Numbered from the stretch's first letter, positions 2,668 through 21,600 are shown. The stretch is DNA of 64,000 nucleotides from Arcticibacter sp. (GCA_021155045.1 JAJNQB010000014.1:85025-149024), one strand, 5' to 3'. A program made the numbers and translations. Notes: generated by a model from the letters alone, not told the origin.

Positions 2668-2700
2668 TATAGAACACAAATTTTTATGATTGTTACGATT
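2668..2700. repeat. Copy A of an intergenic ~30-bp repeat (ATAGAACACAAATTTTTATGATTGTTACGATT); it forms the left inverted repeat flanking GxxExxY copy 1
   Basis: An inverted partner lies at ~3116-3143 and a third copy at ~4718-4748 (coordinates ±2). Confidence 0.6.
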
Positions 2701-3097
2701 TTTTATGTTTTTTATATTCGTTATTGAAAACCTTACGTTTATACTCCGCTTCTTTTCCAAAATTTAAGAGTAAGCCTCCCTCGATGTCTGTGGCACGAAG
2801 ATAATTCACCAATTGAGCTTCGTGCTCTTCAATTAAACAATCTGCTGCTTTTAATTCAATAATTACACAATCATTTACAATTATATCTGTAAAATATTGT
2901 CCTACATTTATTTCATCATAAAAAACCCCAATCGGACATTGTTTTTGGCAATTTAACCCAAGTTTTTTTAGTTCTATCATCATTGAATTTTCGTATACCT
3001 TTTCTAAAAAACCATATCCAAGTTTATTATACACATTGTAAAATGCTTTAATAATCAAACCCGTTATATCTGAATGCAAAAAATTATTCCCTGACAT
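2693..3097 (-). CDS. GxxExxY family protein (PD-(D/E)xK nuclease superfamily), copy 1, inserted between hemB and hemCD
   Basis: Family signature GYGFLEKVYENSMMIELKKLG ... DIIVNDCVIIELKA ... EAQLVNYL; length ~130 aa. Confidence 0.8.
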   Translation of the reverse strand: MSGNNFLHSDITGLIIKAFYNVYNKLGYGFLEKVYENSMMIELKKLGLNCQKQCPIGVFYDEINVGQYFTDIIVNDCVIIELKAADCLIEEHEAQLVNYLRATDIEGGLLLNFGKEAEYKRKVFNNEYKKHKKS

Positions 3098-3115
3098 AAT
3101 TTATCTTAACTCATC

Positions 3116-3143
3116 ATCATAATCCTAAAAATCCGTGTTCTAT
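3116..3143. repeat. Copy B (inverted) of the hem-operon intergenic repeat; it forms the right inverted repeat flanking GxxExxY copy 1
   Basis: The reverse complement ATAGAACACGGATTTTTAGGATTATGAT matches copy A at about 24 of 28 positions. Confidence 0.55.
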
Positions 3144-4702
3144 CACACCCCGAAAACAGCTTCCACCAAACCAACTTCATCAAAAGATTGTGGCAAAATG
3201 CAATTTTCAACATTATATTCTTTTAATTTTTTTTCTGTTGATTTTCCAATTGCAACTACTTGTTGTTTGTCAGAAATTTTTGCTTTAGTGAAAAACGAAT
3301 CAACATTTGAAGGGCTCGTAAATACAACTATTTCAGCAGTTGGAATTGTTGTGCTTTCTTTTTTACCAGTTTCATAAACAACTAAATCAGTTAGTTTTGT
3401 TTGATCTTCGAATTGTTGTTGAATCGTTCTTAATCCTCCTTTTGCTTGTGGAAATAAAACTTTTTCTGCTCCTACTGTTTTTGCGAATTTTTTTCCAACA
3501 ATTTTTGTATCGTTTATACTCCCAACAAATGCTGCATTTTTATTATGTTGCTTTAATGCTTGCTCCGTTGATTTCCCAATAACTCCAAATTTAATTTTGC
3601 TTTTTAACTCTGGATTTTGTGCAAAGAAAAAATCAACAGCATTGCTACTTGCAAAAAATATCCAATCGCATTCAGGTACTGAATTATATTTCACTTCTTT
3701 TGTTTCTATGAATGAAATTCCAGTAACAGTATATTTATTCCCTTCTAATGTTTTTTTGAAAAAAGAATCTTCATTCAAATCACGAGTAATTAAAACAGAA
3801 CAAGGTTTTATTGAATTTAATGCTTCTACAATTTTTTGAGCTAAACCATCATTCGTAAATGATTCTTTGTAAATACGTTTTGGCATTGTATTCCAACTAT
3901 CCGACTTGGATGCCCATACTTTAAATTTATTATCTTCTTTAATACAGTAAACACCCAATGGCAATTGACAACCGCCATCAAACAAGTTTAACACCTTCCG
4001 TTCAACGCCAATAATGTCTTCTACTTTTTCGAAATTTAATTTATTAATGTATTGAAACAATTCATGATCTTCTTCTCTTATTTGCAAAGCAAGAACACCT
4101 TGTGCAGGAGCAGGGATAAATTCTTTTGGGTCAAGTCGTACAACTTTGAATTCGCTTAAATCAATTCTTAATCGCTCAACACCCGCAGCAGCAAGCATGA
4201 TGGCATCGTATTTTTTATCTCGTAATTTCTGAATACGAGTAGGAACATTTCCTCTTAAATCTTCAATTTTAATATCTCCTCTAAAAGCAAATAATTGTGA
4301 TTTTCTACGTGCAGAAGAAGTTCCAATAATAGCATTTGTTTTAAAAGAAAATTTTTGTGTTTTATCAAACGATTCTTTTCTGATAATAATTAATTCAGCA
4401 GAATCTTCTCTTTCAGAAACAGCAGCAATTTGAAGTCCTTCTGGCGATGTTGTTGGTAAATCTTTATGAGAATGAACAGCTAAATCAATTTCTTTTTTTA
4501 ATAGAGCTTCTTCAATTTCTTTTGTAAAAAAACCTTTTCCTTCAAGCTTATCAAAACTCAAATCTTGAATTTGGTCTCCTTGAGTTTTAATTATTTTTAT
4601 TTCAGCTGTAAGCCCAAGCTTTTGAACTTTCCTTAATACATGATTGGCTTGCCACAATGCCAATTCGCTTCCTCTTGAACCTATTATTATTTTACGAGTC
4701 AT
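3143..4702 (-). CDS. hemCD: Bifunctional hydroxymethylbilane synthase / uroporphyrinogen-III synthase (HemC-HemD fusion)
   Basis: The N-terminal ~275 aa are PBG deaminase (MTRKIIIGSRGSELALWQ, cofactor Cys in GGCQLPLG). The C-terminal ~240 aa are a HemD-like fold (VLITRDLNEDSFF..., VVFTSPSNVDSFF). Confidence 0.85.
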   Translation of the reverse strand: MTRKIIIGSRGSELALWQANHVLRKVQKLGLTAEIKIIKTQGDQIQDLSFDKLEGKGFFTKEIEEALLKKEIDLAVHSHKDLPTTSPEGLQIAAVSEREDSAELIIIRKESFDKTQKFSFKTNAIIGTSSARRKSQLFAFRGDIKIEDLRGNVPTRIQKLRDKKYDAIMLAAAGVERLRIDLSEFKVVRLDPKEFIPAPAQGVLALQIREEDHELFQYINKLNFEKVEDIIGVERKVLNLFDGGCQLPLGVYCIKEDNKFKVWASKSDSWNTMPKRIYKESFTNDGLAQKIVEALNSIKPCSVLITRDLNEDSFFKKTLEGNKYTVTGISFIETKEVKYNSVPECDWIFFASSNAVDFFFAQNPELKSKIKFGVIGKSTEQALKQHNKNAAFVGSINDTKIVGKKFAKTVGAEKVLFPQAKGGLRTIQQQFEDQTKLTDLVVYETGKKESTTIPTAEIVVFTSPSNVDSFFTKAKISDKQQVVAIGKSTEKKLKEYNVENCILPQSFDEVGLVEAVFGV

Positions 4703-4717
4703 TGATTAATTTATATG

Positions 4718-4748
4718 GAACACTGATTTTTATGATAGTTATGATTGT
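4718..4748. repeat. Copy C of the hem-operon intergenic repeat (GGAACACTGATTTTTATGATAGTTATGATT), between hemCD and hemA; it is followed by a complementary AAAATCATAAAAAAATCATAATT segment that can pair with it
   Basis: It is the third occurrence of the motif GAACACnnATTTTTAnGATwnTTAyGAT within 2.1 kb. A local inverted repeat follows at 4730-4790. Confidence 0.5.
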
Positions 4749-4798
4749 TTAAGATTTTACCAGCGAAAATCATAAAAAAATCATAATTAATCTGCGTA

Positions 4799-6052
4799 CT
4801 ATTTTTGATTGGTCAAAATGTCTTTTGCCATTTTCATAGGTACGCTGATGTATTTTTTTTCCATGTATTGAAGTATTTTATCTAACACCTCTTTTGAACC
4901 TGCATCCATTGACAATAATTCTTTAGCAAATACTTCATTGAGTGCAACTTCACGAATCTCCTTAACTTTTTTAGGAACTTCACTCATTGCCAACTCTACT
5001 TTTCTTGTTCTTAAAATTTGTTCGAACTCTTGAATATTATTTTCAATGATTATTTTACAAGCTTCCAGCTCTTGTTCACGTGCTTGCATGTTTTCTTTAG
5101 CAACTTCTTGTAAATTATTTATTGCAATTAAATTTACATCATAATTGTTTAAAATTTCAGCGTCCAAATCGTTAGGAATTGCTAAATCAATTACTATCTT
5201 TTTTGATTTATCATTACCAACTAATTTCTTATAGATAGCAGGAGTAATTACGCTTTCGGCAGCGCCAGTACAAGTAACAATAATATCAAATCCATCTGTA
5301 TAATTTTCTAATGCTGATAAAGGAAATGCTTTTCCATTTAACTCTGCTGCTAATGTTTCAGCATTTGCAAGCGTTCTATTAAAAATAGTAAAATTAGTAA
5401 ACTTATGTTTTTTCAGATACTTCGCCATATTGGTATTTGTTACACCCGAACCAATAATTAAAAAACGAGCATCTAATTTTGCATTTAAGGAGCGCAACTT
5501 GCGATATGCTAAAGAAACTACAGAAACAGGATTGCGAGCAATATTAGTATGTGTATAAACATCTTTTCCAACTTCAATTGTTCGTTTGATTACTAAGCGA
5601 ATTAAATCACCAGTTAAATTTAGTTGATTGCATTTTTCATAAGCATTTCTTACTTGCGTAATAATTTCTCTTTCGCCAACCACCAATGAATCAATAGAAG
5701 AAGCAACACTAAACAAATGGCGTAAAGCATTTTCTCCTTCATACACTTGAGCATTTTCAACAGACCAATTAATTTCATTTTCAGTCCAAGAAGAATCGAA
5801 TGCGGTGAAAAATTTGTTTAGAAATGTTTTATCTAAAGATTCGGCAACCGAAAGCAAAAATTCAACTCTGTTACATGTAGATAAATAAAGAAGTTCTTGT
5901 GCATTCACAGAAGCCTTTAAAAAATTTAAACGTTCTGCTAAATCTTTTTCATCAATATGAAAATTGCCAATATCATTAATATCGGTAGTTTTGTGAGTGA
6001 ATGCTATGATTTTAAAATTATTCAAATCGGCTACTTTTCTTTTACAGCACAA
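4799..6052 (-). CDS. hemA: Glutamyl-tRNA reductase
   Basis: The catalytic Cys lies in an STCNRVE context, the HLFSVASSIDSLVVGEREI motif is present, and a C-terminal NAD-binding/dimerisation region is visible. Confidence 0.9.
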   Translation of the reverse strand: MCCKRKVADLNNFKIIAFTHKTTDINDIGNFHIDEKDLAERLNFLKASVNAQELLYLSTCNRVEFLLSVAESLDKTFLNKFFTAFDSSWTENEINWSVENAQVYEGENALRHLFSVASSIDSLVVGEREIITQVRNAYEKCNQLNLTGDLIRLVIKRTIEVGKDVYTHTNIARNPVSVVSLAYRKLRSLNAKLDARFLIIGSGVTNTNMAKYLKKHKFTNFTIFNRTLANAETLAAELNGKAFPLSALENYTDGFDIIVTCTGAAESVITPAIYKKLVGNDKSKKIVIDLAIPNDLDAEILNNYDVNLIAINNLQEVAKENMQAREQELEACKIIIENNIQEFEQILRTRKVELAMSEVPKKVKEIREVALNEVFAKELLSMDAGSKEVLDKILQYMEKKYISVPMKMAKDILTNQK

Positions 6053-15008: not shown

Positions 15009-15314
15009 TTACTTCTTCTTTAATTTTTTCTTTGGATTTTGTCTTGTATCCCAAAAACTAATGAGTTCAACTCGTTTAGAGTTTTCAACTATCTGATACA
15101 AAAGTAAATTATGCTTCGTAATCAATGCTTCATGTACATTTACTTTTGAGGAGCCACGAAATAAAAAAGGATTTTTTTCGAGTAAAAAAACTGTTTGCTC
15201 TACATCGTCAATAAATCTCGTTACTTCTTTTTTTGACCAATGTTTGCTAAGGTAATCTATAATGTTATCAAAAGTATTAACGGCTTCAGGAGCCCAAATT
15301 ACTTTGTACGCCAT
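15009..15314 (-). CDS. Type II toxin-antitoxin system toxin, RelE/ParE family
   Basis: It is ~100 aa, has a ParE-like fold signature (LLYQIVENSKRVELISFW) and overlaps an upstream small partner gene. Confidence 0.7.
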   Translation of the reverse strand: MAYKVIWAPEAVNTFDNIIDYLSKHWSKKEVTRFIDDVEQTVFLLEKNPFLFRGSSKVNVHEALITKHNLLLYQIVENSKRVELISFWDTRQNPKKKLKKK

Positions 15315-15532
15315 TTCTTATATTTTTTCATCACTTCTTTGTGGGCAATACCTTCTCCATTTACTAATTGAATTTTTGCTTTTTCAACAGAGGACTTTTG
15401 TTCTTCAGTTAATTCATCCCACAAATCCGTTTTATGGGCTTTTAACAATGCTTTTATCTGCTTTAAGATAACTTCACTATTTATTTCCAAAAGTTGTTTA
15501 GTTAATTCTATTTTTTGAGCATGAAGATTCAT
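15299..15532 (-). CDS. Putative antitoxin / addiction-module component
   Basis: It is a 77-aa helical protein that overlaps the toxin gene by 16 bp. The antitoxin-first order is typical. Confidence 0.6.
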   Translation of the reverse strand: MNLHAQKIELTKQLLEINSEVILKQIKALLKAHKTDLWDELTEEQKSSVEKAKIQLVNGEGIAHKEVMKKYKKWRTK

Positions 15533-15551: not shown

Positions 15552-16844
15552 TTATTTGAACGCAATCTCCACAGCTTCCGCAAAAGCATTTGCTGTTTTA
15601 GTTAAATCTTCTTTTGTATGTGCTTCACAAACAAAGCCTACTTCGTAACCAGAAGGACCTAAATAAATTCCACGTTCCAATAATTCTTTGTGTAATACTC
15701 TAAAATATTTCATGGAGTCTGCGTCAATTTCTTCAGCAGAACGAATTGTATCTTTATCTGTAAAAGCAATCCAGAATATGGAACCAACAGAAAAAATTTG
15801 GAGATTTTCGATTTTCGATTTTAGACTCCCAAAAATTGTGTCAATCAAAAATTGTGTTTTCTTTTCTAAGTCTTGATAAAAATTTGGTTTTAAACATTCT
15901 GTTAATTGCGCTATTCCTGCTGCCATTGCCACAGGATTGCCGCTTAATGTTCCAGCTTGATAAACATTTCCTTCTGGAGAAATATTGCTCATAATTTCTT
16001 CGCTTGCCCCATACATTCCAACTGGCAATCCTCCTCCAATAATTTTTCCGTAAGTAATAATATCGGGTTGTATTTTATAATAACCAGCAGCACCTTCAAA
16101 ACCTATTCTAAAACCATTAATTACTTCATCAAAAATTAAAAGTGTTTTGTTTTCAGTACAAATGTCACGTAAAAACTGTAAGTATTCTTTTCGTTGTAAT
16201 AATAAACCATTGTTTGCTGGAATAGGCTCAATAATTACACAAGCAATTTGATTTTTAAATTCAACAAATGCTTGCTTCACTGCTTCTTCATTATTTAATG
16301 AAACAACAATTGTTTCGTTCACAAAACTTTCGGGAACACCTGCAGATGAAGTATTACCAAATGTTACTAATCCAGAACCTGCTTTCACCAGTAGCGAATC
16401 GCTATGGCCATGGTAACAGCCTTCAAACTTTAAAATTTTATTCCTTTTTGTATATCCTCTCGCCAAACGAATTGCACTCATCACTGCTTCTGTTCCAGAG
16501 CTAACAAATCGTATTTTCTGAATATATTTATTATTATTTAATATCAATTCGGCCAACTCATTTTCTAAAGCTGTGGGTGCGCCAAATGAACTTCCATTTT
16601 CAACTGTTTTTTTAATGGCATCTACTACTTTTGAGTTTGCGTGACCCAAAATCAAAGGTCCCCAAGAACCGCAGTAATCAATAAATTCATTCCCATCTGC
16701 ATCCCAAATATGTGATCCTTTTCCTTTTTGAATAAACAATGGTGTGCCTCCAACCGAACGAAATGCGCGTACAGGACTGTTTACACCACCCGGAAAATAT
16801 TTTTTAGCTTTTTCAAATAATGCTTCTGATTTTTCTCTCTTCAT
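15552..16844 (-). CDS. hemL: Glutamate-1-semialdehyde 2,1-aminomutase
   Basis: The protein is a class III aminotransferase (FPGGVNSPVRAF; PLP Lys region). The ORF track extends to 16979, but the MKREKSEALFEKAKKYFPGG start at 16844 fits the family and avoids overlapping the GxxExxY cassette. Confidence 0.9.
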   Translation of the reverse strand: MKREKSEALFEKAKKYFPGGVNSPVRAFRSVGGTPLFIQKGKGSHIWDADGNEFIDYCGSWGPLILGHANSKVVDAIKKTVENGSSFGAPTALENELAELILNNNKYIQKIRFVSSGTEAVMSAIRLARGYTKRNKILKFEGCYHGHSDSLLVKAGSGLVTFGNTSSAGVPESFVNETIVVSLNNEEAVKQAFVEFKNQIACVIIEPIPANNGLLLQRKEYLQFLRDICTENKTLLIFDEVINGFRIGFEGAAGYYKIQPDIITYGKIIGGGLPVGMYGASEEIMSNISPEGNVYQAGTLSGNPVAMAAGIAQLTECLKPNFYQDLEKKTQFLIDTIFGSLKSKIENLQIFSVGSIFWIAFTDKDTIRSAEEIDADSMKYFRVLHKELLERGIYLGPSGYEVGFVCEAHTKEDLTKTANAFAEAVEIAFK

Positions 16845-16888
16845 AATTGAATAAATTATGCTACAAATATATATCTTTGGAATGGATT

Positions 16889-17342
16889 TCTCGCAGAGCC
16901 GCTGAGTACGCTGAGAAAATTTATTATGAAAGAAAATGATATTACTGGTGCACTGATTGATATCTTTATAAAGGTACATTCTCAGCTAGGACCAGGCTTG
17001 TTTGAGAGTGTTTACGAAGAAGTAATTTGCTATGAATTAAAGAAAAGAAGCTTAACATATAAAAGACAGCAAGAAATTGGAGTGTTTTATGATGATATAA
17101 AAATGGATATTGGATTTAGAGCCGACCTAATTATAGAAAACAAAGTGATTGTGGAAATTAAATCAGTTGAACTTTTAGCACCTGTTCATCACAAACAACT
17201 ATTAACCTACTTAAAATTAACAAACAAGAAAGTAGGATTGCTAGTTAACTTTAACGTGAGTTTGGTTAAAGATGGAATCGTAAGAATTGTAAATAATTAT
17301 TAATAAAAAACAGAGCTCAGCGAACTCAGCGGCTCTGCGAGA
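16889..17342. mobile_element. TIR-bounded GxxExxY cassette, copy 2 (MITE-like): perfect 19-bp terminal inverted repeats TCTCGCAGAGCCGCTGAGT / ACTCAGCGGCTCTGCGAGA
   Basis: The inverted repeats were read directly (±2 bp). The element is ~454 bp and carries one gene. Confidence 0.45.
16926..17303 (+). CDS. GxxExxY family protein (PD-(D/E)xK nuclease superfamily), copy 2
   Basis: Signature GPGLFESVYEEVICYELKKRS ... DLIIENKVIVEIKS ... HHKQLLTYL. Confidence 0.8.
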   Translation: MKENDITGALIDIFIKVHSQLGPGLFESVYEEVICYELKKRSLTYKRQQEIGVFYDDIKMDIGFRADLIIENKVIVEIKSVELLAPVHHKQLLTYLKLTNKKVGLLVNFNVSLVKDGIVRIVNNY

Positions 17343-17351
17343 AACACAAGT

Positions 17352-18620
17352 ATGAACTACGAGAATACATTAGAATTTGCAAAACAACAAGATGCAAACG
17401 ATCCATTAAAAAAGTATCGTGAAAAATTTTATTTCCCAATGATGCATGGTCGTGAAACTGTTTATTTTACTGGGAATTCGCTCGGACTTCAACCAAAGGC
17501 AACGCAAGATTATGTTTTGAATGAATTAGAAGATTGGGCTACATTTGGTGTTGAAGGACATTTCCATGCACGAAAACCTTGGATGTCATACCATGAACAA
17601 TTTGCTGAACCGCTTTCAAAAATAGTAGGTGCAAAACCCGAAGAAGTTGTTGTAATGAATCAACTTACAGTTAATTTGCATTTATTGCTTGTTAGTTTTT
17701 ATCGTCCTACAAAAACACGTTATAAAATTTTATGTGAAGCAAAAGCATTTCCTTCCGACCAATATGCTTTGGAGTCGCAAGTGAAATTTCATGGATACAT
17801 CCCTGATGATGCTATCATTGAAATAGCTCCACGTGAAGGAGAAGTATGCATCCGTCATGAAGATATAATTTCGGCAATCGAAAAAAATAAAGATTCTATC
17901 GCTACCATTATGATTGGTGGAATAAATTATTACAACGGACAAGTGTTTAACATGAAAGCTATTACAGAAGCTGGTCATAATATTGGAGCGACTGTAGGAT
18001 TTGATTTAGCACATGCTGCCGGAAATTTAAAATTAGAATTACACAATTGGAATGTGGATTTTGCTTGTTGGTGCAGTTATAAATATTTGAATTCAGGACC
18101 AGGAGGTGTTGCAGGAATTTTTATCCATGAACGTCATTTGAACAAGCCCGAAATTCCTCGTTTTGCAGGATGGTGGGGGCACGATAAAAATTCTCGTTTT
18201 AAAATGGAGAAAGGATTTATTCCTATGCCAACAGCCGAAGCTTGGCAAATGAGCAATGCGCCTGTATTGTCGATGGCAGCACATAAAGCATCAGTAGATA
18301 TTTTTAATGAAGTAGGAATGGATGCTTTGGTCGCAAAATCAGAAAAATTAACTGGTTTTTTAGAATTTATAATTGACGACATAAATAATTCGCTTAAACA
18401 AAAATTAGAGATTATCACACCAAGAGATAAGGCTCAAAGAGGTTGTCAATTATCTATTGTAGCACACGGAAAAGGAAAAGAATTATTTAATAAACTTACA
18501 GAAGCAGGAGTAATTAGTGACTGGAGAGAACCGAATGTCATTCGATGTGCCCCAGTACCATTATATAATTCTTTCGAAGATATTTTTAGATTTGGAGAAA
18601 TTTTAAAAACATCTCTTTAA
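17352..18620 (+). CDS. kynU: Kynureninase
   Basis: Class V aminotransferase fold with the kynureninase-specific WCSYKYLNSGPGGVAGIF PLP region. Confidence 0.85.
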   Translation: MNYENTLEFAKQQDANDPLKKYREKFYFPMMHGRETVYFTGNSLGLQPKATQDYVLNELEDWATFGVEGHFHARKPWMSYHEQFAEPLSKIVGAKPEEVVVMNQLTVNLHLLLVSFYRPTKTRYKILCEAKAFPSDQYALESQVKFHGYIPDDAIIEIAPREGEVCIRHEDIISAIEKNKDSIATIMIGGINYYNGQVFNMKAITEAGHNIGATVGFDLAHAAGNLKLELHNWNVDFACWCSYKYLNSGPGGVAGIFIHERHLNKPEIPRFAGWWGHDKNSRFKMEKGFIPMPTAEAWQMSNAPVLSMAAHKASVDIFNEVGMDALVAKSEKLTGFLEFIIDDINNSLKQKLEIITPRDKAQRGCQLSIVAHGKGKELFNKLTEAGVISDWREPNVIRCAPVPLYNSFEDIFRFGEILKTSL

Positions 18621-18682: not shown

Positions 18683-19300
18683 ATGGCTAGATCCAAAATA
18701 AAACACAATCCGAACGCCAAACAATTGATTGACGAAGGAATAGCAAGCGCAGAGCCCTTTGCTCAAGCAATTTGTAAAAAGTTGCGTGCTATTATTTTAA
18801 AAACAGACCCTGCTATTATTGAAGATTGGAAATGGGGACCAAATTATTATAAAGATGGAATGGTTTGCGGTTTTTGGTATTTTAAAAAACATTGCACTCT
18901 TGTATTTTATCAAGGGGCATTATTAAAAGATAAAAAAAAGGTGTTGCTGAAAAATGAAGGCAATGTTCATAATCGACATTTAAAATTTACCGATGTAAAA
19001 CAAATAGATGAAAAATTATTAATAGAATATATTACAGAAGCAATAATAAATAATGAGAAGGGATTAAAAATTATAGAAACAAAAAATAAAACGGTAATTA
19101 TTCCTGATGATTTTATAAAGATATTGTCAAAAAATAAGCTTCTTAATTATTTCGAAAACCTTAGTTATTCCCATAAAAAAGAATATATAATGTGGATTAA
19201 TGACGCAAAAAAAGAAGAGACACGATTGAGAAGAATGGATACAGCCGTGGAAAAATTAAGTGCAAAACAAGGGTTGAATGATAAATATTTAAAGAAATAA
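18683..19300 (+). CDS. DUF1801 / YdeI-like domain protein
   Basis: Domain-level resemblance only. Confidence 0.55.
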   Translation: MARSKIKHNPNAKQLIDEGIASAEPFAQAICKKLRAIILKTDPAIIEDWKWGPNYYKDGMVCGFWYFKKHCTLVFYQGALLKDKKKVLLKNEGNVHNRHLKFTDVKQIDEKLLIEYITEAIINNEKGLKIIETKNKTVIIPDDFIKILSKNKLLNYFENLSYSHKKEYIMWINDAKKEETRLRRMDTAVEKLSAKQGLNDKYLKK

Positions 19301-19470
19301 ATTGTCTCGCAAAGACGCAAAGTACGCAGAGAAAGAGTTTATGAATTCAGTTTTTGAAAATTTAAATGCAAAACAAGGGTTAAACGATAAATACATCAAA
19401 AGATAATTTGTCTCACAAAGACGCAAAGTACGCAGAGAAGCAGTTTATGAATTCAGCCAATAAAGAATTA
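19260..19470. repeat. Two tandem ~106-bp units covering the DUF1801 gene 3' end, the left TIR of GxxExxY copy 3 and its ATG
   Basis: The units TGCAAAACAAGGGTTGAATGATAAATATTTAAAGAAATAAATTGTCTCGCAAAGACGCAAAGTACGCAGAGAAAGAGTTTATGAATTCAG and TGCAAAACAAGGGTTAAACGATAAATACATCAAAAGATAATTTGTCTCACAAAGACGCAAAGTACGCAGAGAAGCAGTTTATGAATTCAG match at about 90%. Confidence 0.7.
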
Positions 19471-19871
19471 AATGAAAATGAAATTTCAAAAATATTATTA
19501 AACATTTTTATTTCTATTCATTCACAACTCGGACCAGGATTGCTTGAAAGTGTTTATGAAGAAATAATATGCCATGAATTAGATAATCATGGAGTTAAAT
19601 ATAAAAGACAACAAGGAATTGCTGTCGTTTACAATGAAATTAAACTTGATATCGGTTTTAGAGCAGATATAATAGTATCGGATAAAGTAATAATTGAAAT
19701 TAAATCTGTTGAGCAACTTGCTCCTGTTCATCATAAACAATTATTAACTTACCTAAAATTGACAAATAAAAAACTTGGTTTGTTGGTTAACTTTAATGTA
19801 AATTTAATCAAAGATGGAATTGTAAGAATTGTAAATAATTTATAACCTTGCGAGCTTTGCGTCTTTGCGAG
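19411..19871. mobile_element. TIR-bounded GxxExxY cassette, copy 3: 18-bp TIR TCTCACAAAGACGCAAAG / CTTTGCGTCTTTGCGAGA with 1 mismatch
   Basis: Read directly from the sequence. The TIR is related to that of copy 2 (shared TCTCGCA...AGTACGC.GAGA frame). The upstream duplicated unit carries a perfect-match left TIR copy. Confidence 0.45.
19447..19845 (+). CDS. GxxExxY family protein, copy 3
   Basis: About 75% identical to copy 2, with a near-identical C-terminal 30 aa. The ORF track begins at a TTG at 19408, which lies inside the TIR; the ATG at 19447 is the likelier start. Confidence 0.75.
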   Translation: MNSANKELNENEISKILLNIFISIHSQLGPGLLESVYEEIICHELDNHGVKYKRQQGIAVVYNEIKLDIGFRADIIVSDKVIIEIKSVEQLAPVHHKQLLTYLKLTNKKLGLLVNFNVNLIKDGIVRIVNNL

Positions 19872-19885
19872 AAAAAAATAGAAAT

Positions 19886-21232
19886 ATGAATAAAAAAGTA
19901 AATATTATTGGTGCTGGCTTAGTTGGTTCTTTGTTATCCATCTATCTTGCAAAACGTGGATATAAAATAAATATTTTTGAACGCAGACCAGATATGCGAA
20001 AAGCAGCAATGTCTGCTGGAAAATCAATCAACCTTGCATTAAGCGACAGAGGATGGAAAGGACTTGAAGGTGTTGGCATTGCTGATGAAATTAAAAAAAT
20101 TGCTATTCCAATGTATGGCAGATTTATCCATCATAAAGATGGCTCAACAGCTTACCAACCTTATGGAAAAGAAGGCCAAGCAATCTATTCTGTTTCAAGG
20201 GCAGAAATAAATATGAGATTGATGGATTTAGCAGAACAACAAAAAAATGTTACTATCCATTTCAATGAAAAATGTATTTCTGTTGACAAACAAAATCTAT
20301 CTGCTGAATTTGAAAACACGGAAACAAACACCATATCTAAACATAAAAGTGATTTAATCTTTGGTTCGGATGGAGCTTTTGCTGCCTCTCGTTTAAACTT
20401 ACAATTAACAAGCGATAGATTTGAGTACAATCAACATTATATTGAAGCTGGTTATAAAGAACTTATAATACCTCCTGGTCCCAATGGAGAATTTTTAATT
20501 GAGAAGAACGCATTGCATATTTGGCCTCGCGGAAGTTTTATGATGATTGCATTACCAAACATGGATGGTAATTTTACTTGCACTCTATTTTTACCATTTG
20601 AAGGAGAGTTTTCTTTTGAAAAATTAAGAACAGAAGAAGATATTTCTACATTTTTTAATGAACAATTTCCTGATGCTGTGCCTTTAATGCCAACTCTTAT
20701 TGATGATTTTATGAACAACCCAACATCATCACTTGTAACTGTAAAATGCTATCCTTGGACTTTTGAAGACAAGATTGCATTGATTGGCGATGCTGCCCAT
20801 GCTGTTGTTCCGTTTTACGGACAAGGAATGAATTGCGGGTTTGAAGATTGTGTGGTATTAAACGAACTAATAGGAAAGCATAATGAAGATTGGAACAAAA
20901 TCATGAACGACTATCAAGAACTTCGAAAACCTGATGCCGATGCAATTGCTGATTTAGCCATTGCAAATTTTGTGGAAATGCGTGATAAAACTGCAGACCC
21001 AAAATTTTTATTACAGAAAAAAATTGAAGCTAGATTTAGTGAAAAATATCCCGAAAAATGGATTCCTCTATATTCAATGGTAACATACAGCCCTCACATT
21101 CGCTACTCAACCGCAATGAAAGAAGGACAAAAGCAAGAATTAATCATGCAAAAAATTATGGCGATGCCTGAAATAGATAAAAAATGGGATAGTGAAGAAG
21201 TTGAAAAGGAAATTTTAAAAAGTATCAAGTAA
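19886..21232 (+). CDS. kmo: Kynurenine 3-monooxygenase (FAD-dependent)
   Basis: FAD-binding VNIIGAGLVGS motif, with KMO-like homology throughout. The start was moved to MNKKVNIIG, downstream of the cassette's right TIR. Confidence 0.85.
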   Translation: MNKKVNIIGAGLVGSLLSIYLAKRGYKINIFERRPDMRKAAMSAGKSINLALSDRGWKGLEGVGIADEIKKIAIPMYGRFIHHKDGSTAYQPYGKEGQAIYSVSRAEINMRLMDLAEQQKNVTIHFNEKCISVDKQNLSAEFENTETNTISKHKSDLIFGSDGAFAASRLNLQLTSDRFEYNQHYIEAGYKELIIPPGPNGEFLIEKNALHIWPRGSFMMIALPNMDGNFTCTLFLPFEGEFSFEKLRTEEDISTFFNEQFPDAVPLMPTLIDDFMNNPTSSLVTVKCYPWTFEDKIALIGDAAHAVVPFYGQGMNCGFEDCVVLNELIGKHNEDWNKIMNDYQELRKPDADAIADLAIANFVEMRDKTADPKFLLQKKIEARFSEKYPEKWIPLYSMVTYSPHIRYSTAMKEGQKQELIMQKIMAMPEIDKKWDSEEVEKEILKSIK

Positions 21233-21288: not shown

Positions 21289-21600
21289 TTGTTACTAATA
21301 AAAATGATTTACGATAAAAAATATCTTCAAGTAAAACTCCTTTTAGAAAATGTTTCGAACTATGAATTAATGGGTGTTTACCGTCCTCAAGCTTATTTGC
21401 AAGGCGCAGGAAAATATTGTACTGAATGTCAAATAAATTTGTTTAAAGCGCCCATTGAGCCAGGAAAAAGCGAAATTGTAAATGCAGTTCTTTTTGCCCC
21501 ACATGGTTATGGCGAACATTTACTTACAGGAAGTTTATTAACTTTACGTAACGGAATTGAGATAGAAGCAAAAGCCGTTGTTTTGGAAATAATAGGATAG
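21289..21600 (+). CDS. Hypothetical protein
   Basis: Open reading frame only. A later start at MIYDKKY is possible. Confidence 0.35.
   Translation: MLLIKMIYDKKYLQVKLLLENVSNYELMGVYRPQAYLQGAGKYCTECQINLFKAPIEPGKSEIVNAVLFAPHGYGEHLLTGSLLTLRNGIEIEAKAVVLEIIG

Follow-up and report, generated by a model that had tools for sequence, protein, structure and literature searches.

In the 64-kb window, i.e., the whole stretch of Arcticibacter sp. DNA that was analysed, a small gene of the GxxExxY family lies between the divergent genes hemL (- strand) and kynU (+ strand). It is enclosed by two inverted arms and occupies the 5' leader of kynU; its position between the two genes and its orientation, shared with kynU, were already given in the initial annotation. 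The ORF (16926-17303, + strand) encodes 125 aa, in agreement with the earlier description of a single PD-(D/E)xK-like gene of about that length, and scores 141 bits against TIGR04256 (GxxExxY) and 139 bits against PF13366 (PDDEXK_3). The 19-mer TCTCGCAGAGCCGCTGAGT occupies 16889-16907, and 17324-17342 reads as its exact reverse complement. The perfect 19-bp inverted pair that had been reported around the gene was true but understated, since the inverted repeat reaches 29 nt (16887-16915 and 17316-17344, both read on the + strand) with 28 of the 29 positions (97%) complementary. These arms are rich in G+C compared with 31.7% G+C for the window. When the 19-mer was searched for with up to three mismatches, just two matches were returned from the window, both belonging to this element (hereafter cassette 1), against 0.01 expected. 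The initial annotation had read the arrangement as a MITE carrying cargo and had named the lack of further pairs of the same terminal inverted repeat as an argument against it; no further pair occurs in the window, where a strict MITE reading fails by this yardstick. Two independent read-level assemblies (L001 and L002) hold an identical cassette 1, which rules out an artefact of assembly.

The arms are themselves repetitive. The left arm ends 10 nt 5' of the ATG and carries three units in tandem, CGCAGAG (16892-16898), CGCTGAG (16900-16906) and CGCTGAG (16909-16915). The right arm begins 12 nt 3' of the stop codon, ends 7 nt before the kynU ATG (17352) and holds the mirrored units CTCAGCG (17316-17322), CTCAGCG (17325-17331) and CTCTGCG (17333-17339). 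A promoter-like box, TATCTTTG, is located just 5' of the left arm at 16872-16879 (+ strand), separated from it by 7 nt (16880-16886) and with a TTG 17-23 nt upstream. It has the form TAnnTTTG, which is the published consensus of the Bacteroidota -7 promoter motif, and is the sole box of this form on the + strand within 16800-17360, none being present inside or after the cassette in that interval. All relatives conserve the box, and the surrounding sequence, GCAAATATATATCTTTG, is conserved across the hemL-kynU spacers of relatives. We take the box to be the common promoter of cassette 1 and kynU, a function assigned from the Bacteroidota consensus.

PDDEXK_3 was the sole domain found in the protein, a minimal PD-(D/E)xK nuclease in which E27, D67, E77 and K79 are conserved. 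The nuclease core is present, the catalytic E...D...ExK residues are invariant, and the fold is of the PD-(D/E)xK type, resembling restriction enzymes, Hjc and Cas4. A sequence-profile search of the PDB gave no match, and Foldseek against the PDB returned weak, generic PD-(D/E)xK matches only. Judged by its sequence, the cargo is a small, catalytically intact PD-(D/E)xK nuclease. The dN/dS of the ORF (0.03-0.04) equals that of kynU, and among hemL-kynU orthologues, where synonymous divergence is near saturation (pS 0.64-0.74), the arms are still conserved.

The window contains two further GxxExxY genes, which the initial annotation did not mention, and each of the three has its own inverted arms, giving three different arm-pair sequences. 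The three proteins score 141, 136 and 133 bits against TIGR04256 (cut-off 35) and 139, 132 and 137 bits against PF13366 (cut-off 22). Copy 2 (19447-19845, + strand) lies between a DUF1801 gene and a gene for a FAD-monooxygenase (KMO-like); counted from the ATG used by homologues of 85-92% identity it encodes 132 aa, and its protein is 72% identical to that of copy 1. Its left arm is present twice. The distal one (TTGTCTCGCAAAGACGCAAAGTACGCA; 19302-19328, + strand) begins 1 nt past the stop codon of the DUF1801 gene upstream, and the proximal duplicate (19407-19434, + strand) belongs to a tandem duplication of ~105 nt, which takes in the leader of the cassette and the 3' end of the DUF1801 gene as well. 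The right arm (TGCGAGCTTTGCGTCTTTGCGAGAAAAA; 19849-19876, + strand) stops 9 nt short of the KMO-like gene, whose ATG is at 19886. Copy 3 (2693-3097, - strand; 134 aa, ~43% identical to copy 1) sits in an operon of the order hemA-hemCD-[Gxx]-hemB. Its upstream arm (sense ATAGAACACGGATTTTTAGGATTATGATGAT; 3113-3143, - strand) abuts the hemC/D stop codon, and its downstream arm (2669-2699, - strand) overlaps the stop codon of the cassette ORF and abuts the hemB start. No TAnnTTTG box was found in or near copies 2 and 3.

In copies 1 and 2 the arms consist of triplets of tandem 8-9-nt units, (N)CGCAGAG, CGCTGAG or CGCAAAG, with the general form CGC[A/T/C][A/G]AG, a composition that had likewise gone unmentioned. 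Within the window, such units are clustered at the cassettes and nowhere else (5 clusters against 0.12 expected), and dispersed gene-less copies of the arm motif are absent from its 64 kb. A search of the whole window against Rfam at gathering thresholds gave no match, i.e., no rRNA and no intron or ribozyme family.

Arms and operon context across the family

The wider comparison drew on two sets of 80 loci each, one anchored on kynU and taken from species-representative genomes, the other made up of diverse GxxExxY loci found in metagenomes. MAGs and contigs of metagenomes make up the relatives, and the source genome is represented by the window. The family is very large, with at least 8,000 candidates in each homologue search, and its members are found by the thousand between unrelated housekeeping genes. 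A search of viral contigs turned up a single relative and thus no sign of a phage link. We scored upstream and downstream flanks for an inverted repeat (score of at least 28) in 92 distinct GxxExxY genes for which both flanks were available and in 806 control ORFs, and found it in 76% of the former versus 3.9% of the latter. The initial annotation had asked whether every GxxExxY copy carries such repeats: all three in the window do, and among the sampled genes it is a large majority and not all, an arm pair being undetected in about 20-24% of family members. That the genes are multicopy, as had been stated there for some genomes, is borne out by the three in the window, and most members of the family have arms.

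Where present, the arms have a median length of 30 nt; the median distance is 17 nt from the end of the left one to the ATG and 9.5 nt from the stop codon to the start of the right one. Their consensus is (T)CTCGCAAAG-nCGCAAAG-nCGCAAAG together with its mirror image, and the outermost ends are conserved as TC[T/A]CGC...GCG[A/T]GA. The subfamily of copy 3 (~43% protein identity) has a motif that differs from this one and is conserved just as well, ...GGnAC[G/A]C[T/G]GATTnTTATGAT.... Across the family, 47 of 55 proteins had the same arm unit type as their nearest protein neighbour (31.9 expected; maximum of 44 in 1,000 shuffles), and as such the unit type tracks protein relatedness, which indicates that arms and gene descend together. 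Left and right arms of the CGCAAAG type spaced 250-700 nt apart essentially always surround GxxExxY genes. Other gene families inside such arms were considered, and the apparent exceptions (L111 and L083) proved to be host genes between two adjacent elements.

Orientation agrees with that of the downstream gene for 48 of 57 cassettes and with that of the upstream gene for 38 of 50. Often 1-4 nt lie between the upstream stop codon and the left arm, and a median of 17.5 nt separates the right arm from the following ATG. Given the promoter boxes, the spacing and the co-orientation, the cassettes are most likely transcribed as part of host operons. Their typical position is a short operon spacer, where they have the orientation of the neighbouring genes and no dedicated promoter.

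The two arms of a cassette are matched to one another. The median pairing score was 41 for arms of the same locus versus 24 for arms of different loci, and an arm's own partner was its best match in 20 of 67 comparisons. When 15 cassettes were aligned, both sides had changed at 11 of 27 pairs, with 28 compensated cells compared to 12.4 ± 2.9 after shuffling (none of 500 shuffles reached the observed value), and 88% of cells were paired in register versus 26-53% when the partner was slid. Two double substitutions separate the arms in the window from those of the orthologue L003, and paired variants also occur in the copy-3 clade (GGAAC/GTTCT, GGGAC/GTCCC and GGTAC/GTACC). In the predicted RNA fold of cassette 1, MFE and centroid structures alike have the entire cassette closed by the arms (dG -125 kcal/mol, z = -7.7). 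The initial annotation had offered long-range pairing of the mRNA ends as an alternative to a mobile element. This closing stem makes it physically plausible and the co-orientation fits it, whereas the arm mismatches speak against selection on RNA pairing as such, as those on the sense strand have no excess of G:U over A:C (49 versus 52) and the complementarity is thus not visibly tuned for RNA. It could reflect maintenance at the level of DNA, or homogenisation between the arms. Moreover, all six units of an element switch together from CGCAGAG to CGCAAAG in the 15-cassette alignment; this concerted switch forms part of the 'compensatory' signal and agrees with co-evolution of a recognition motif no less than with pairing.

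Two sets of observations are available. Co-orientation with host operons, the want of a promoter within the cassette, the long near-perfect stem and the precedent of intervening sequences (IVSs) speak for a role in RNA, and RNase III is expected to cut near-perfect dsRNA of 20 bp or more. Recognition of the units by a protein is favoured by a motif that is conserved and clade-specific and by the six-unit switch, such a motif not being required of a plain RNase III substrate. Given that evidence of both kinds is present, we adopted a model with two levels, RNA and DNA.

Gain, loss and relocation

Empty hemL-kynU sites, which the initial annotation proposed to look for, do exist in relatives. 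The spacer is gene-free and 51-176 nt long in most of them, and the cassette is present in 9 genomes only. In the kynU tree, the 9 occupied sites all fall within one inner clade, where they are interleaved with empty and remnant sites, and the outgroups are empty. Synonymous divergence of the cassette at this site equals that of kynU. Taken together, the tree pattern and the equal divergence point to one ancient gain followed by vertical descent and repeated loss, and the hemL-kynU copy is an old, vertically inherited resident with no sign of recent movement. The occupant of the same spacer in L017 is of the copy-2 type, which points to replacement or to a further insertion.

The gain of copy 2 is more restricted, this copy being present only in the window and in L187/L188 among the sampled relatives. 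The corresponding spacer is cleanly empty, without a hairpin, in L003, L010, L013 and L023. There, L019 has the right arm and a 3' remnant of the gene, L009 has a right-arm remnant alone, and L012 and L014 have gene-less hairpins. The clean empty sites, which have no pre-existing hairpin, indicate that the arms arrive together with the gene. Proteins 85-91% identical to copy 2 are encoded at three junctions of the same operon, i.e., DUF1801-KMO, DUF1905-DUF1801 and directly after kynU.

Target-site duplications, proposed in the initial annotation as a feature to be sought just outside the arms, were not detected: over 53 cassettes, flanking direct repeats were at the level of the cross-locus control by both exact and shift-tolerant comparison, and none was seen at the window copies. 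The 1.2 Mb of fetched DNA contains at least 24 gene-less hairpins of the same units with loops of up to 60 nt (~30 when loops of up to 141 nt are allowed) and 16 outward-facing right-left arm junctions, and some genes are flanked by two complete hairpins. Decay products, namely gene-less hairpins and solo arms, are common. Arms and gene behave as a unit, being acquired, passed on, relocated and lost as one.

Competing explanations

We consider it probable that the element is a stem-loop gene cassette, in which a nuclease gene lies within two inverted arms of about three 8-9-nt units, that in layout it is the operon-spacer counterpart of the ORF-bearing IVS of 23S rRNA, and that it works in four steps. 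The cassette would be transcribed from a host promoter within a host mRNA, as the promoter boxes, spacing and co-orientation suggest. Its arms would then pair in the transcript to form a stem of ~29 bp around the nuclease ORF, in line with the computed fold and with the co-variation. By analogy with the IVSs, host RNase III may cut this stem, which would release the nuclease mRNA and leave the flanking cistrons usable, making the insertion tolerable. The last step is the weakest: the clade-specific units would probably be DNA recognition sites of the encoded nuclease, which might in this way maintain or propagate the cassette without target duplication.

Inverted termini with conserved outermost ends, presence/absence polymorphism at two sites and gene-less derivatives whose arms are joined by short loops are also features of a classical MITE or small transposon with cargo, the 19-29-bp terminal inverted repeats of which would bind a transposase supplied in trans. 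Of this reading as the initial annotation gave it, the single unit of insertion and deletion formed by gene and arms has held up, as have the empty sites, but there is no duplication, no arm sequence shared between copies and no transposase, and one copy is old and vertical. Flanking repeats are no more frequent than in the control, and the three copies in 64 kb differ in their arms, the exact 19-mer being unique to cassette 1. Arms co-vary within a locus instead of all copies fitting one consensus, and the ORF and arms at hemL-kynU are as old as the host gene and strongly selected. Symmetric ends also predict no strong co-orientation with operons, though selection after insertion could yield it, and we regard a MITE as very unlikely. 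The age and constraint of that copy (vertical inheritance, dN/dS ~0.03) are instead consistent with an ordinary, immobile host gene whose patchiness is the result of loss only, and in which a stem between the 5' and 3' ends of the mRNA controls the stability, processing or translation of the nuclease message. The stable closing stem in the RNA fold and the co-orientation with neighbours are in keeping with this, and the left arm, with its end ~10-17 nt 5' of the ATG, is close enough for the footprint of a ribosome to reach it. Yet outgroups with a conserved hemL-kynU pair are empty, which implies a gain, and copy 2 is limited to the window and L187/L188 among the sampled relatives, with close relatives at other junctions of the same operon. 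Nor does an immobile gene account for a multicopy family with thousands of members between unrelated housekeeping genes. A plain stem would require no conserved tandem motif, and the enrichment in G:U that an RNA stem should leave is absent, all of which makes a purely resident gene unlikely in our view.

Two further explanations remain. The arms may be DNA-level half-sites, i.e., arrays of three sites, for a dimeric or oligomeric GxxExxY nuclease that cuts unoccupied or gene-less palindromes or single-stranded DNA hairpins, the element spreading through homing-like repair copying or through hairpin excision and integration and the RNA stem being a by-product. A clade-specific motif repeated three times per arm with all six units changing in concert, a symmetric mismatch spectrum, abundant gene-less palindromes of the same units and the lack of target duplication all agree with such an element, as does a fold like that of restriction enzymes, Hjc and Cas4; PD-(D/E)xK homing endonucleases, e.g., I-Ssp6803I, exist. 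It is nevertheless at odds with clean empty sites that offer no palindrome to target, it leaves the strong co-orientation with host transcription unexplained, and we hold it to be improbable. Alternatively, a domesticated GxxExxY nuclease could disseminate or maintain gene-less hairpins, analogous to REPINs, with its own gene flanked by the substrate repeats in the manner of REP/RAYT systems. The flanking repeat is indeed found as gene-less hairpins and as clustered right-left junctions in operon spacers, and the protein is under strong purifying selection, but every arm cluster in the 64-kb window belongs to a cassette, the genes are multicopy with private arm variants where RAYT systems typically have one gene for many REPs, and the enzyme is of the PD-(D/E)xK and not the HUH/Y1 class. 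To this last possibility we give the least credence of all. The stem-loop cassette acting at both levels remains our preferred reading.

The GxxExxY/PDDEXK_3 proteins form a very large family of unknown function, and the packaging of most members in cassettes gives the family a concrete genomic behaviour, while the repeated arm units offer a testable candidate substrate for the nuclease. For annotation, the results mark insertions of 400-500 bp in the operon spacers of Bacteroidota as structured units that probably affect the processing of housekeeping mRNAs; in the window, the operons concerned are those of the heme and kynurenine pathways.

Comparison with known systems

Several familiar arrangements can be set aside. 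Integron gene cassettes do not apply, given that the repeats on both sides of the ORF pair with one another, the neighbours are housekeeping genes, and neither attC nor an integrase is present. A toxin-antitoxin pair would need a partner gene, of which there is none, and no T-run follows the stem as it would in a terminator. With MITEs and small insertion sequences the cassettes have in common terminal inverted repeats, small size, an intergenic position, presence/absence polymorphism and short gene-less derivatives. Empty orthologous sites, a criterion for MITEs, are present in relatives, and the pattern at hemL-kynU is one of a single old gain and several losses. They differ from MITEs and insertion sequences in having no target-site duplication and no identical ends across the cassettes of the window (the part of the genome covered), in arms that co-vary per locus, and in the ancient, vertical descent of the hemL-kynU copy; we know of no cognate transposase.

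In common with the REP/BIME-RAYT systems (REPtrons), a nuclease-type gene lies between inverted copies of a short palindromic repeat, and gene-free repeats, often clustered in alternating orientation, occur in operon spacers right after stop codons. We rejected a REPtron as such, because the encoded protein, in which only PDDEXK_3 was found, is not an HUH/Y1 (IS200/IS605-like) transposase. The cassettes further depart from REPtrons in being multicopy genes with arms of their own, and in the lack of dispersed gene-less copies within the window. Homing endonuclease genes of the I-Ssp6803I type, or those borne by introns or IVSs, offer another parallel, namely a small PD-(D/E)xK nuclease inside an element that, if the analogy holds, would be removable at the RNA level. 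Like homing endonuclease genes, the cassettes cause no target duplication and have both occupied and empty alleles. Unlike them, they have no intron or ribozyme (by Rfam), they occupy many unrelated insertion sites, and their empty sites are without an obvious conserved target.

The closest known system is the ORF-bearing IVS of 23S rRNA, found in Leptospira, Coxiella burnetii and Brucella. The IVS of Coxiella is 428-444 nt long, and its terminal inverted repeats pair into a stem of 28 bp (PMC4990558). Three tandem heptamers (GACAGAT) precede an ORF in the loop that encodes S23p, a four-helix-bundle protein, and the element is cut out by RNase III, while its origin and mobility are still unknown (PMC4990558). 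The GxxExxY cassettes match this plan in size (~430-450 nt), in the single small ORF placed in the loop without a transposase, and in terminal inverted repeats that enclose the element in a stem of ~28-29 bp that has one or two mismatches. Some three repeats of heptamer type in tandem are likewise found in the 5' arm just before the ORF, and the distribution is similarly patchy, suggesting gain and loss. The differences concern location and cargo. The 23S rRNA IVSs lie in helix 9, 25 or 45, whereas the cassettes lie between protein-coding genes, in operon spacers and in a 5' UTR, and being outside rRNA they are not strict members of the IVS class. Their cargo is a PD-(D/E)xK nuclease (TIGR04256) and not S23p, and it is under strong purifying selection, in contrast to the decaying ORF of Coxiella. 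Excision by RNase III is a property of the IVS that the cassettes may share by analogy.

The literature on GxxExxY, on related family names and on IVSs with inverted repeats yielded no description of this arm architecture, and we rate the operon-dwelling, IVS-like stem-loop cassette with nuclease cargo as a variant absent from the published descriptions found. Genes for four-helix-bundle proteins resembling those of IVSs were also present in the fetched loci, and about half of 10 had sub-repeated arms, with other motifs (for L085 and L065, the four-helix-bundle identity comes from sequence motifs and mutual similarity). As such, the architecture spans at least two cargo families. The GxxExxY family is in this way tied to an old question, the nature and origin of the 23S rRNA IVSs, and should cassettes and IVSs prove to be elements of one kind, ordinary operons would offer a place to test IVS biology. 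It is a tentative and rather doubtful extension of the comparison that GxxExxY cassettes, S23p/four-helix-bundle cassettes and ORF-bearing 23S rRNA IVSs make up one widespread, unrecognised mobile class of 'stem-loop cassette'. The three-unit arms of this class would be recognised by the cargo protein, its members would spread without target duplication into operon spacers and the hairpin loops of rRNA, excision by RNase III would spare the host, and the GxxExxY nuclease would act as the enzyme of mobility or maintenance.

The hemL/kynU spacer and its neighbourhood

Between hemL and kynU, two Bacteroidota-type -7 boxes stand back-to-back within 16864-16879, one for each gene: that of hemL, TATATTTG, is on the minus strand and that of kynU, TATCTTTG, on the plus strand. 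Both lie within the motif GCAAATATATATCTTTG, which is kept in the hemL/kynU spacers of nearly all relatives.

Between hemL and a tyrS-like gene lies what looks like a toxin-antitoxin pair, i.e., two overlapping minus-strand ORFs, a ParE/RelE-like toxin ORF of 101 aa (15009-15314) and, upstream of it, an ORF of 77 aa (15299-15532). The same pair of ParE/RelE-like and small ORFs was found in the relative L003, the ParE_toxin Pfam match being weak.

Duplications around the cassettes

In L023, another relative, the hemL/kynU gap spans 1260 nt (4740-6001) and holds the cassette, i.e., the GxxExxY nuclease gene between its inverted arms, together with a repeated segment that carries a second copy of the right arm and a duplicated kynU start ('atgaaatacgaaaacact...'), which indicates that the duplication was local, around the cassette.

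The second GxxExxY gene of the window (19447-19845, plus strand) has two left arms because its upstream junction was duplicated in tandem. This duplication of ~105 nt (19265-19455), the copies of which are ~85-88% identical as judged by eye, takes in the DUF1801 gene's 3' end as well as the left arm, the cassette leader and the first codons. A second left arm ~100-130 nt 5' of the ATG was also found in L189, L019, L023, L028, L111 and L128.

Hairpins and repeat arms beyond the GxxExxY cassettes

Gene-less hairpins of the CGCAAAG/CGCAGAG type, the unit types of the cassette arms, form arrays in L083 (3150-3850), L161 (1-1100) and L155 (2392-3003). In L083 they stand at both sides of an ordinary RidA-like gene, at least four follow each other in tandem in L161, and in L155 two near-identical 89-nt hairpins bracket a GxxExxY gene.

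In the window, a gene-less hairpin (21212-21248/21269-21305; 37-nt arms, 78% complementary, 20-nt loop), its arms made up of AGTATCA/AGTATTA-like sub-repeats, occupies precisely the spacer that separates the KMO-like gene, whose stop codon is at 21230-21232, from the following ORF, whose ATG is at 21305. The orthologous spacer of L003 (9322-9419) also holds a hairpin, with 35-nt arms of unrelated sequence.

In the Chitinophagaceae- and Ferruginibacter-like relatives L045, L048, L052, L054, L065, L078 and L079, a four-helix-bundle gene, similar to 23S IVS proteins, lies 5' of the RidA/kynU genes (~4700-5400 in each), and in L065 it appears to be joined in frame to the RidA-like gene downstream. 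Several of these genes have tandem sub-repeat arms, e.g., CGTTTCT/AGAAACG or TTTGTTGTTTGG.
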